Shown here: positions 13,841 through 30,187 of the stretch, piece by piece
Layout of the letters: each line of letters starts with the position of its first letter
How positions within the stretch are numbered: position 1 is the stretch's first letter
From: Lachnospiraceae bacterium
Lineage (GTDB): Bacteria > Bacillota > Clostridia > Lachnospirales > Lachnospiraceae
Length of the DNA: 64,000 bases
NCBI GenBank assembly: GCA_017431345.1
Contig: JAFRLH010000055.1
Location: 58,229-122,228 of the forward strand
Direction of reading: 5' to 3'
Translations under genes and position numbers: made by a program
Notes under the pieces: model-generated
Database searches by the model: none
What the model was told of the DNA's origin: nothing
The model's input: only the letters and a program-made list of their open reading frames with translations

Positions 13841-13959
13841 TGTCATCCTGAGCAAGCGAAGCGCGTCGAAGGATCTTCGCTCTGAAACAGGCGGCTTTAC
13901 TAAAACCGCAAGCATTACGCGGTGGATTCTTCCGTTGCTCTGCGCCTTCAGAATGACAG
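13841..13959 (+). repeat. 119-bp MITE/REP-like element with TGTCATYCTGA terminal inverted repeats (copy B)
   Basis: It starts TGTCATCCTGAGCAAGCGAAGCGCGTCGAAGGATCT and ends CTTCAGAATGACAG. It aligns along its whole length with the minus strand of 49234-49352. Confidence 0.6.
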
Positions 13960-13964
13960 ATGTT

Positions 13965-14303
13965 TTATTCGATCGTGATCCTCTTCTCCTCAGCTGCCTT
14001 CTCGTAAGCAATCTTCGGAATCGTCAGGATCAGGACACCGTCCTTATAAGCTGCTTTGACATCTTCAGTCTTGATGTCTCCGACATAGAAACGTCTCTGG
14101 CACTTGCCGGTATAGCGTTCTTTTCTGAGAGGCTTCATGGTCTCGTCATTCAGGAACTTGGCTTCTACGGTCAGATATTCTTTCTCAACGTACGCTGCGA
14201 TCTTTTCCTTGGCGCAGCCCGGGATGTCTACCTTCAGCACATAAGCCTCATTGTTTTCCAGAATATCGCATCTCATTAAATCATTTCTTCTTTCCATGAT
14301 CAT
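13965..14303 (-). CDS. Hsp20/alpha-crystallin small heat-shock protein
   Basis: M(I)MERRNDLMRCDILENNEAYVLKVDIPG...YKDGVLILTIPK. Start placed at ATG 14303 or 14297. The track ORF extends to 14399. Confidence 0.85.
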   Translation of the reverse strand: MIMERRNDLMRCDILENNEAYVLKVDIPGCAKEKIAAYVEKEYLTVEAKFLNDETMKPLRKERYTGKCQRRFYVGDIKTEDVKAAYKDGVLILTIPKIAYEKAAEEKRITIE

Positions 14304-14423
14304 CCCTTCTTTCCGTATGATTAAGAGGATCCTTGGGCATTCCGGCTTCCGGTGGATACGCTTTTCTGCATCTGCACCGCCTTCCTGCGTTCTGATCACT
14401 CTCTTTTTTCTCTTTACGCCTAT

Positions 14424-14452
14424 GTTATAGCACTTCTGTTAGCACTCGTCAA
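14424..14452 (-). promoter_or_regulatory. Sigma-A type promoter of hsp20 overlapping CIRCE
   Basis: The minus strand has TTGACG (14452-14447), a 17-nt spacer, then TATAAC (14429-14424). The -35 lies in the CIRCE spacer. Confidence 0.55.
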
Positions 14453-14465
14453 GAGTGAGTGCTAA
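14439..14465. promoter_or_regulatory. CIRCE operator (HrcA binding site)
   Basis: TTAGCACTC-GTCAAGAGT-GAGTGCTAA is a perfect match to the TTAGCACTC-N9-GAGTGCTAA consensus. Confidence 0.85.
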
Positions 14466-14627
14466 CATTTTTTGTGAAATTTCCGTGAAGAAATGATTAA
14501 ATGACTTATTTTGCGGGTTCCGGTCTTCTTTCCATCGAAAATATACTGTACTGATCTGTGCAATATTCTTCTTATAGTTCGTTCTGCTGCCCAACGCAAG
14601 ACGCCGCCTGATAACCTCAGACGGCGT
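14449..14627. repeat. Non-coding module copy X1 plus hairpin H1
   Basis: tcaagagtgagtgctaacattttttgtgaaatttccgtgaa... is identical for ~41 nt to 16327 onward. It is homologous to 22024 onward, with an internal deletion. It ends in the hairpin AGACGCCGCCTGA-taacc-TCAGACGGCGT at 14599-14627. Confidence 0.8.
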
Positions 14628-16177: not shown

Positions 16178-16380
16178 CTGACCAATTTTTTGACCAATTT
16201 TGCCTAACACCAGACGCCGCCTGATGAGCTCAGACGGCGTCTTCCTTTACTGCATATTGTGTTTTTCTTTTCCGGACACCACTACATAAGCCATGACAGG
16301 GGCTGTTAAACCGACCGCAACCGTAATCAAGAGTGAGTGCTAACATTTTTTGTGAAATTTCCGTGAAAATTGATGTGCTG
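16178..16380. repeat. Non-coding module copy Y2 plus the start of X2
   Basis: It contains cTGACCAATTTTtTGACCAATTTTg. Hairpin H2 is AGACGCCGCCTGA-tgagc-TCAGACGGCGTCT at 16212-16242. A ~90-bp conserved stretch then ends in the right CIRCE half, tcAAGAGTGAGTGCTAAc. It is about 93% identical by eye to 21875-22040. Confidence 0.85.
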
Positions 16381-16450: not shown

Positions 16451-16618
16451 TGTGCAATTTTGATAGCATCCGGACATTTTTACTGTCTCTGTTTTTGCAA
16501 TAATCTCCTCTTTACGGAAAAATGCTGTCACGATCCGTGCAATAATGCTGCCTTTCAGGATTTTCTACTGTCCTCTTGACCTTGTTTTTCTCAACTCTCC
16601 GCGTAAAAAAGGACAGTA
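16451..16618. repeat. Iteron-like array: three 42/43-bp units (TGTGCAATAA...TACTGTC) plus an inverted TACTGTCC/GGACAGTA pair
   Basis: TGTGCAAT-like words are at 16451, 16494 and 16536. (T/A)(A/G)CTGTC words are at 16481, 16523 and 16566. GGACAGTA is at 16611. Confidence 0.7.
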
Positions 16619-16859
16619 TAATTCTATTTTCGCAGCCTGATTGCACAAAAACGATACATTTCACCTGTTATTGCCTCTCTCAGCCGCATTTTGGGGACAG
16701 CACAATTTCATATATGCCTGTTTTTTGCACCGCTTCCCGCCTGAAATTGAAATTACGCCGCCATCAACATGACGAGGCCGCGATCCGTTCAGTTGGATCA
16801 CCGCCGCTTTCTTCGTGATCATCAGTATTCTCGAAAGCCATCGCCAAAAACAGAGATTT

Positions 16860-20530: not shown

Positions 20531-20660
20531 CTGACCATTTTTTTGACCAGTTTCCCGTAAACCCAGACGCCGCCTGATACCTTCAGACGGCGTCTCCTAT
20601 TACTGTATATTGTTATCCTACACTCCGGATACCTGTGCATAAGGCATTACAGGCTCCATC
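20531..20660. repeat. Diverged non-coding module copy Y'
   Basis: It contains cTGACCATTTTTtTGACCAGTTTCc and hairpin H3, AGACGCCGCCTGA-tacct-TCAGACGGCGTCT, at 20565-20595. Homology to Y2/Y3 decays after that point. Confidence 0.7.
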
Positions 20661-21874: not shown

Positions 21875-22080
21875 TTGACCAATTTTCTGACCAATTTTGC
21901 TTAACACCAGACGCCGCCTGATAACCTCAGACGGCGTCTTCCTTTACTGCATATTGTGTTTTTTTCTTCCGGATACCACTACATAAGCCATGACAGGGGC
22001 TGTTAAACCGACCGCAACCGTAATCAAGAGTGGGTGCTGACTTTTTTTGGTAACTTTTCGTGAGAAGTTGATGAAGTGAC
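21875..22080. repeat. Non-coding module copy Y3 plus the start of X3
   Basis: It contains tTGACCAATTTTcTGACCAATTTTg and hairpin H4 at 21909-21939. A conserved stretch follows, ending tcAAGAGTGgGTGCTgAc at 22024-22041. Confidence 0.85.
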
Positions 22081-22158
22081 TTATTTCTGCGTGTTTCGCT
22101 CTTCTTTCCATATACATTTCCGGGCAGCCAGCCGCCAATCTGCTTTTCCGGCTTCGTT

Positions 22159-22327
22159 TGTGCAATAAATGATGTTCTATAAAATTATACTGTCCCGGAT
22201 TGTGCAATAACCGCTTTCCATTGAAAAAATACTGTACTGATCTGTGCAATAATCTTCTTATAAAATGTTTATACTGTCCTAATTTCACTGACAGATGACA
22301 CAAGCCAGTGCAAATCAGGACAGTATA
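22159..22327. repeat. Iteron-like array: three exact-phase 42-bp units, followed by a 21-bp-arm inverted repeat
   Basis: TGTGCAATAA is at 22159, 22201 and 22243. ATACTGT(C/A)C is at 22187, 22229 and 22271. The inverted repeat is tatactgtcctaatttcactg (22270-22290) against cagtgcaaatcaggacagtata (22306-22327). Confidence 0.8.
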
Positions 22328-22667
22328 TTTTGTTTTTTGACTTCGAATTGCACACCGAACAGGAATACTATGCTTTTCTGCCGCCGTCATACGCTGTTTA
22401 ATGACAGTACACTTATTCAAAAACCTATAATTTTGCACTCTATTGGCATGACATGATAAAAAAACACCGCCTGATACGGAATGATGCAGCAGGGGACGTT
22501 ATTTCAGTCTTTTATTGTCATAATTTGCATAAAACCGGCAAATATTTGTTGAATTCTATTGTGATATTGATATTATATTAAATAAAGAATTATGAATCTG
22601 ACGGAGAAGGGATCTTCTCCCTGCTCCGTCTTCCGGCACCATCACGAAAGGGGGCGGCTGACAGGTA

Positions 22668-29677: not shown

Positions 29678-30187
29678 TTCTGCCTCCTTTTTGGTGTTCA
29701 GCGGGAAATGAATCCGCTGACGGTCTCCATGTGCCATCCCCTATACTGCAGGATCATACTTCCCTGTCCTGCCGCAGGACAGGGATATCTTCTTTTCAAG
29801 TATATCTTTATACCGCTGAAATGACAAGTAAAACACCTCTCTATTTTTTAATGAATGTCCTATCTTCTCCGAAGGAATCCCTGACGACCAGCATCTGCGG
29901 CTCTTTAGAACTGAATTCGTTGTCAACATCCTCCTCGCTGGAGACCGCCCTGTTGACATAGGCGACCGGAAGATGGCTTTCCTGCACTGCATTCTTCAGT
30001 TCATACAGGACCTCTTCATCCCTGACTTTCATGGTGCAGGTTCCCGACTATTTTGTGCAGCAGGATTACTGTCGTGATTTTTATGCTGTTTCAGCAATTT
30101 TTAGAATGCATTTTTCCCTTGTATCGGTTACAATATAAAGTGATCTCGTTTGTTTTACAGCAATAGAATATTATCGGGAGAAAATCA

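Follow-up and report, generated by a model that had tools for sequence, protein, structure and literature searches.

Two repeat arrays in a stretch of Lachnospiraceae DNA belong to a dispersed family of non-coding intergenic elements with a precise architecture. The stretch, hereafter the window, comprises 64,000 nt of contig JAFRLH010000055.1 (58,229-122,228, forward strand) from the Lachnospiraceae bacterium assembly GCA_017431345.1, and the positions below are window positions unless a contig is named. Each element consists of units with two non-palindromic words, which are set on a lattice of four helical turns and arranged as a dyad with a fixed asymmetry of its two arms. Selection acts on the words and their spacing only, and the elements are dispersed, turn over, and are portable between loci, with no features of a replicon. 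We tentatively favor a reading, to which we give somewhat less than an even chance, in which the array is a portable protein-docking cassette acting on neighboring genes, i.e., a clade-restricted non-coding lattice element with a putative binder. The source genome (G000, 3.27 Mb) was compared with two uncultured Lachnospiraceae genomes of the same genus, CAMOER (G002) and CAMOZZ (G004). All three are incomplete metagenome-assembled genomes, with completeness of 97%, 87%, and 75%, respectively, and absences in them are therefore provisional.

The lattice unit is GRCAGTA-N22-TTGCAC(A), with a length of 35 bp. Its GRCAGTA side (word 2) points toward the center of the element and its TTGCAC(A) side (word 1) lies at the outer end. 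Consecutive units are joined by linkers of about 7-8 nt, and the lattice is 42 bp, which corresponds to four helical turns. Of the 79 units that we collected from 14 loci, the gap measures 22 nt in 63 and 23 nt in 13. The profile of 53 non-redundant units contains information only in gGRCAGTAnW(w)T and TwwTTGCACA, and nothing in the 22-nt spacer rises above background. At position +8 after word 2 every unit has A or T, which yields TAnWWT. Genome-wide in G000, the pattern [AG]CAGTA-N22/23-TTGCAC yields 18 exact units, 17 of which fall in four loci, whereas eight other gap sizes yield 0-2 and the reversed control none. In the window, the composite pattern has six matches against 0.31 expected, and not one of 100 shuffles reaches six. 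The single words are near background in G000, as TGTGCAATAA occurs 8 times (5.7 expected) and TACTGTCC 124 times (100 expected). ATACTGTCC occurs 70 times against 24 expected, and this excess is mostly in apparent coding sequence read as GGA-CAG-TAT. The signal therefore lies in how the two words co-occur in phase, and not in the frequency of either. Hence, the background frequency that the initial annotation had named as the ground on which its claim would fall is found for the single words, but not for their phased co-occurrence. The arrays it had called iteron-like are real as an observation, which is confirmed and extended here.

Array B occupies 22160-22438. Its long arm (22160-22278, minus strand) has units at 22244-22278, 22202-22236, and 22160-22194. 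On the plus strand, TGTGCAATAA begins at 22159, 22201, and 22243, and the TACTGTC/TACTGTA words end at 22194, 22236, and 22278; both series keep the exact 42-bp period that had been annotated for three units near 22159-22280. The center (22279-22318) is 40 bp long and, together with the flanking words, contributes to an imperfect palindrome of about 20 nt. The inverted repeat placed initially at about 22270-22327 was recovered in the repeat search and in the fold, with arms of about 20 nt around 22270-22331. The short arm (22319-22438, plus strand) has its first unit, S1, at 22319-22353, seen as the inverted copy GGACAGTATA...ATTGCAC, and its second, S2, at 22403-22438, i.e., at offsets 0 and 84. 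Array A has the same layout in a degenerate form. Its long arm (16452-16572, minus strand) has three units of the form GACAGTA/GACAGCA-N22/23-TTGCAC/TTGCAA at 16537-16572, 16495-16529, and 16452-16487, with periods of 42 and 43 bp. The center (16573-16611) has 39 bp of unconserved sequence between the innermost inverted words, and the A-tract GTAAAAAAG at its end adjoins S1. The short arm (16612-16730, plus strand) is composed of S1 at 16612-16646 and S2 at 16696-16730, again at offsets 0 and 84, with no unit in the gap between them. The periods and the inverted unit described earlier around 16451-16575 are thereby borne out. As a second inverted unit lies 84 bp farther out in both arrays, array A spans 16452-16730 and array B 22160-22438, and the previous end of the former at 16660 was too short.

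We then compared the layout of 11 loci from the three sister species and one metagenome contig. Each locus has two inverted arms, whose innermost GRCAGTA words are 40-41 bp apart. The short arm has exactly two units at offsets 0 and 84 (±1) in 10 of the 11 loci, whereas the long arm has contiguous units at 0, 42, 84, and onward, three to ten in number. The outer expansions of the long arm are recent tandem copies with decaying words. The center and the 49-nt gap of the short arm keep their length but not their sequence, and the A-tract GAAAAAG adjoins S1 in about seven of the loci. The geometry is thus strict near the dyad and relaxes toward the outer ends. The elements are about 280-650 bp long, and none of the 11 has a gene between its arms.

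The initial annotation described two copies of a module, but G000 alone has four full loci and several remnants. The other two full arrays are at C49:16.1-16.5 kb and C91:47.0-47.5 kb, and the remnants are on C76, at the gdh locus, and in the window at 30050-30095. Arrays are found on contigs C5, C20, C43, and C3 of G002 and on C13, C14, C87, and C157 of G004. The copies are 61-83% identical to one another, inside arrays only, at four to five loci per genome. A scan with the exact two-unit pattern through one genome for each of 185,579 species matched only G002 and G004. A metagenome scan returned 120 stretches; 80 of them were inspected, nearly all were unrelated tandem repeats, and the only true relatives were the array-bearing contigs L093, L100, and L150. 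A looser pattern had more matches than its control across the wider family, but three checked in G118 and G018 look coding and are attributable to codon bias rather than arrays. The single match in a viral scan was a coding repeat, and a literature search with the array words returned only noise. DapF of G004 and G002 is 98% and 96% identical to the G000 protein, respectively, compared with 64-67% in three other genus members. The family is therefore restricted to a narrow clade of three species, all of them uncultured rumen Lachnospiraceae.

The array loci, 14 or more in the three species, are intergenic and chromosomal, lying between genes that Pfam scans identify as unrelated housekeeping genes. 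The neighbors include hsp20 and the AAA_14/DUF4143 ATPase genes, dapF and an alaX-like gene, an ANTAR response regulator gene, gdh and a SpoIIE-like gene, deoC and an ABC-F gene, cbiO and cobT, two SIS-domain genes, a transaldolase gene and a Na/Pi transporter gene, a methyltransferase gene, and a LigT-like phosphoesterase gene. Orthologous junctions, at which the flanking proteins are 96-99% identical, carry an array in some of the genomes and none in others. Specifically, the dapF-alaX junction has a 440-bp insert including an array in G000, essentially no spacer in G002, and a different element, a miniature inverted-repeat transposable element (MITE), in G004. The sis1-sis2 junction measures 53 bp in G000 and is compact in G002, but in G004 it measures 470 bp including an array, with flanking proteins 99% identical. 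The cbiO-cobT junction is 36 bp in G000, about 925-955 bp including an array in G002, and compact in G004. Upstream of gdh, there is one leftover unit in G000, nothing in G002, and a full array in G004. The transaldolase-Na/Pi transporter junction has a three-unit array in G004, and only the decayed remnant at 30050-30095 (minus strand; AACAGCATA...ACAGTA...CTGCACA) in G000. Metagenome contig L150 is 100% identical to G004:C14 (L053) from the region upstream of gdh through the array and the downstream gene, while gdh itself is clearly diverged; this pattern appears to be a sharp recombination (or assembly) mosaic.

Two of these junctions have further features. The MITE-like repeat is 119 bp long, occurs in the window at 13841-13959, and has the ends TGTCATYCTGA; it has dozens of matches of 72-97% identity in G002 and G004, one of which fills the dapF-alaX junction of G004, and it contrasts with the arrays in copy number and identity. 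In the gdh region, comparison of G000:C4:24400-24520 with L053 1780-2520 reveals that about 800 nt are missing from G000 in the SpoIIE-like gene downstream of the array; in G004, this stretch codes for the 270 N-terminal residues. Aside from these, contig L050 (G002:C20) has a run of about eight tandem 18-nt repeats (GTGACCAATAGACAGCAC) at about 1600-1760, directly after the long arm and before the ABC-F gene.

The conserved words, the strict four-turn lattice, and the free spacers together support phased, cooperative protein binding. In the favored reading, the element would be the assembly site of a putative sequence-specific, oligomerizing DNA-binding protein, which either reads both words (bipartite recognition) or pairs with a partner protein. 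The bound molecules would lie on one helical face and, starting at the dyad, polymerize outward to form a complex of higher order that may wrap the DNA. The loose outer ends, where the long arms vary from three to ten units and the outer units decay, argue for a complex built around the center and against transposon tips. As the favored consequence, this complex would control how the flanking genes are transcribed or insulate their transcription. Both the binding and its effect on flanking transcription are predictions from sequence. The cassette would enter and leave intergenic DNA by recombination or indels and not as part of a replicon. Word 2 continues into the outward-facing TAnWWT hexamer, which resembles a -10 promoter box, and arrays inserted into the tight operons dapF-alaX, sis1-sis2, and cbiO-cobT would have to carry a promoter or be transparent to transcription. 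The earlier proposal of cooperative binding by a regulator or initiator thus keeps its cooperative part, while its initiator part finds neither a Rep gene nor a replicon context.

Several results weigh against this reading. The flanking genes have no functional theme in common. At 14 loci the orientation of the flanking genes is divergent in four, co-directional in nine, and convergent in one, which is the chance level and demonstrates no promoter bias. The distance from TTGCAC to the -10-like hexamer is 12 bp, as against the 16-18 bp of sigma-70 spacing. The arrays are not kept at orthologous loci among the sister species, which is unusual for a regulon. Finally, neighbor scans at the 14 loci and candidate searches found no regulator gene linked to the arrays and identified no binding protein. 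Two candidates were rejected, namely the DUF4143 ATPases, which are not found in the array-bearing G002 or G004, and an HTH_17 protein adjoining the array of L100, which is found only in G000 and not in G002 or G004. The suggestion that a winged-helix protein of the local island is the binder is weakened in the same way by the distribution of the island ATPases. To our knowledge, no site among CIRCE (controlling inverted repeat of chaperone expression), CtsR, LexA, Rex, CRP/FNR, Spo0A, PhoP, WalR, the sigma-54 -24/-12 element, LytTR/AgrA, the marbox, CggR, and TnrA fits both words with their spacing; these comparisons serve as leads only. Arrays of sigma-70 promoters were rejected as well, since other hexamer pairings give spacers of 19-22 nt instead of 16-18 bp, and a promoter scan found no excess (21 sites versus 16.8 ± 4.3 expected).

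Some known docking sites are similar in part. In R1 parC, two five-iteron sets flank a promoter core of 39 bp; F sopC is made of 43-bp repeats, and P1 parS has two box types, both of which are read by P1 ParB; binding at plasmid centromeres is cooperative and wraps the DNA. The lattice arrays resemble them in having repeat sets around a core of about 40 bp, a period near four helical turns, and two word types. However, those three sites are single-copy, lie on plasmids or prophages, and adjoin par genes, whereas the lattice arrays are inverted, occur in multiple copies on the chromosome, and have no par genes. Reused "mobile" promoters are homologous non-coding cassettes that stand before unrelated genes and vary in presence between close relatives (PMC3575422). 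Cassettes fronting unrelated genes and variable among close relatives are likewise seen here and in the bacterial interspersed mosaic elements (BIMEs) of E. coli. In contrast to mobile promoters and BIMEs, which are recognized by overall similarity or by palindromic REP (repetitive extragenic palindromic) units, the lattice copies share two words and their spacing, with a defined dyad. BldC is reported to form cooperative head-to-tail multimers on direct repeats whose number varies by target (PMC5859096). The variable number of direct repeats is a likeness to these BldC sites, but no BldC-like gene is linked to the lattice arrays.

The alternative that survives best is that of a mobile or recombination element that is not autonomous. 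Its two inverted, asymmetric arms would be synapsis platforms with multiple binding sites for a transposase or recombinase acting in trans, and this enzyme would also spread the copies. We regard it as possible, if on balance unlikely. It accounts for the presence and absence of arrays at orthologous junctions, where parsimony indicates gains at dapF-alaX in G000 and at sis1-sis2 in G004, and for the dispersal of copies over unrelated loci. Consistent with it are also the occupation of the dapF-alaX junction by another MITE in G004, the conserved asymmetry of two spaced versus three or more packed sites, and the outermost words 5'-TGTGCAA...TTGCACA-3', i.e., TG...CA. Tn7 carries three TnsB sites at its left end and four at its right end (PMC8649781). 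Like the ends of Tn7 and Mu, the lattice elements have inverted arrays of protein-binding sites of about 20-35 bp with free sequence between the sites, a fixed difference between arms with spaced and packed sites, and outermost words of the form TG...CA. Unlike those ends, the arms meet at a 40-bp center without cargo, the lattice is uniformly 42 bp, and the conserved geometry is central, while the outer tips vary from three to ten units and decay. Furthermore, no 5-bp target duplication was seen and no transposase with matching ends was found. At the four junctions dapF-alaX, sis1-sis2, cbiO-cobT, and gdh, there is neither a target-site duplication nor a clean insertion boundary, and the indels replace rather than split sequence.

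The age and number of the copies also speak against mobility. At 61-83% identity the copies are old, and none is close enough to identity to be the source of the seemingly gained arrays. The four to five loci in each genome compare with dozens of matches at 72-97% for the 119-bp MITE. With no gene between the arms, a search of the rve family in these incomplete genomes found no transposase flanked by such ends, and the rve domain is absent or unrelated in G002 and G004. A Tn7-like element does occur in G000 (C89:52353-60309, equal to L203 8354-16310). Its core genes encode a TnsA-like protein, a 731-aa protein with an rve domain, a TniB/TnsC-like ATPase, and two TniQ-family proteins. This element was rejected as a parent of the arrays, as it has no word clusters and is not found in G002 or G004. 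Recombination sites of the lambda type were compared as well. In attP, the P arm has P1 and P2 apart, the P' arm has the contiguous inverted P'1-3, and the core lies between. The lattice elements are similar in a length of about 250 bp, in two spaced versus three contiguous inverted sites, in a center between the arms, and in two kinds of word. They differ in that the center is unconserved and has no core-type sites or overlap, intact copies occupy many chromosomal loci, and no integrase gene is nearby.

A titration site for DnaA, as in the DnaA-box clusters of B. subtilis or E. coli datA, is an improbable reading. The relaxed DnaA box is TTWTNCACA, in which position 5 is unspecified and the two 5' T are needed. 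Word 1 with its flank (WWTTGCACA) is often one mismatch from this box, its profile fits the seven 3'-most positions of the box TTATNCACA, and each locus has 5-12 such words within 300-650 bp. However, the G at box position 5 is invariant although DnaA does not specify it, and the two 5' T positions are only 40-47% T. The reading also leaves the obligatory word 2 and the strict 42-bp lattice unexplained, and the loci are not conserved between sister species.

A neutral minisatellite, formed by a 42-bp tandem repeat and a palindromic duplication without sequence-specific function, is likewise very unlikely. Recent tandem expansions with near-identical units do exist in G002:C5, G002:C3, and metagenome contig L100. 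In most arrays, however, the units have only the two words in common and entirely different spacers, while slippage or concerted evolution would homogenize entire units. The same asymmetric design is found at 11 loci despite the different spacers.

The initial name of "iteron-like" implied the iterons of a replicon or an integrated origin, where an initiator would bind the repeats and open the DNA at the center. The direct repeats in inverted sets around a short center and the period of a whole number of helical turns agree with it. Nevertheless, we regard this as highly improbable. Among the neighbors at the 14 loci, Pfam scans revealed neither a Rep gene nor another initiator gene, and blastn against 72,556 plasmids and 50,697 phages found nothing similar to the arrays. 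Four to five loci per chromosome are dispersed between housekeeping genes, 14 or more in three species. The absence of a nearby Rep gene and of plasmid or phage matches, together with this dispersal, leaves the iteron or initiator reading unsupported. In addition, the centers are not markedly AT-rich (59-67% A+T in three and about 50% in a fourth, counted by eye), and the GC skew has no switch in the window. A classical iteron-like array elsewhere in G000, with nine repeats of 23 bp, looks quite different. This array, made of direct repeats (TTAATCATGTCAGAnnnnnnnnn) at C89:33705-33905 just upstream of a gene start, is iteron-like or operator-like and unrelated to the lattice arrays. One false lead is thereby removed, namely that of a hidden replicon in the window.

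A structured RNA or a hairpin of the REPIN (REP doublet) or BIME type, acting as single-stranded nucleic acid, is hardly credible: the inverted arms would let the words pair and the fold of array B is slightly better than its shuffles (z = -2.3), but the pairing is limited to 7-nt words across internal loops of 19-22 nt (-34 kcal/mol for 296 nt), no Rfam match appears at E <= 1, and the spacers have no compensatory pattern, as they do not align at all. A stable REP, BIME, or REPIN hairpin was rejected on the same fold and on the non-palindromic words. The statement that the arrays are neither coding nor clustered regularly interspaced short palindromic repeats (CRISPR) was upheld. The one scanned open reading frame that overlaps array B (21944-22438) has no Pfam match, and a CRISPR array was rejected because the conserved words have a length of just 6-10 nt, the two arms run in opposite orientation, and the neighborhood is free of cas genes.

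The two arrays of the window share a local history with hsp20 (13965-14399, minus strand) and the ATPase genes. Upstream of hsp20 lies a perfect CIRCE operator, TTAGCACTC-N9-GAGTGCTAA, at 14439-14465 (minus strand). About 80-95 nt farther upstream is fragment C (14544-14591, minus strand), in which a single degenerate unit, GGCAGCA-N21-TTGCAC, precedes another word 2, GTACAGTA. The composite at 14544-14563 corresponds to the single surviving unit noted before near 14545-14570. The region 14528-14576 is 94% identical to 22214-22262, and fragment C equals array B minus about 100 bp deleted between two ATGGAAAG repeats. The region 14449-14576 recurs upstream of ATPase-1 and ATPase-3. These recurrent copies keep only the first CIRCE half (16327-16343 and 22024-22040), which is then joined to a 190-nt module, and a duplication or insertion breakpoint is therefore placed inside the CIRCE operator. 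Within the 190-nt module, whose two copies have 92% identity, lie a hairpin with a 12-bp stem and the repeat GGTCA-N7-GGTCA. Between arrays A and B, identity is no more than 61-71%, with the words retained. Since array A diverges far more than the adjoining module, the history is not one recent duplication. The concern that the arrays are simply a recent duplication is further countered by the conservation of the design in related species, though at different loci. The recurring upstream region and the relation of fragment C to array B indicate that one lattice element sat before hsp20 and was then copied as ATPase cassettes accumulated. The upstream region of hsp20, including half of its CIRCE operator, was copied along with the arrays during that accumulation.

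The hairpin with the 12-bp stem, GACGCCGTCTGA-loop-TCAGGCGGCGTC, occurs in four copies (14598-14627, 16211-16240, 20564-20593, and 21908-21937) upstream of or between AAA_14 ATPase genes. It has a G-U pair in the minus-strand RNA only, and three of the four copies are followed on the minus strand by GGTCAnAAAAnTGGTCAG, which has two GGTCA words with a 12-bp period. A Cys-rich open reading frame of about 39 codons in the flanking module, open at 16250-16345, was dropped, as its start codon is missing in the 22-kb copy. Elsewhere in the window, Tandem Repeats Finder reported a 63-bp tandem repeat at 780-944 with 2.6 copies and a 98% match.

Two odd repeats beside an island have thus become a defined non-coding family, whose unit, lattice, dyad, and arm asymmetry constitute a precise and testable architecture. 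The strict spacing combined with free spacers is almost certainly the mark of a higher-order protein-DNA complex. A more far-reaching proposal, which we consider rather doubtful in its entirety, is that the array represents a previously undescribed class of portable nucleoprotein-assembly site, i.e., gene-less and dyad-symmetric with bipartite words, a four-turn lattice, and a fixed arm asymmetry. In this proposal, a putative clade-specific protein would either move the array without target duplication or impose a new local chromatin-like control on its neighbors. Knowing the protein could reveal intergenic cassettes that move without the usual hallmarks of transposons, or a portable module, regulatory or architectural in kind, through which sister species come to express their housekeeping operons differently.

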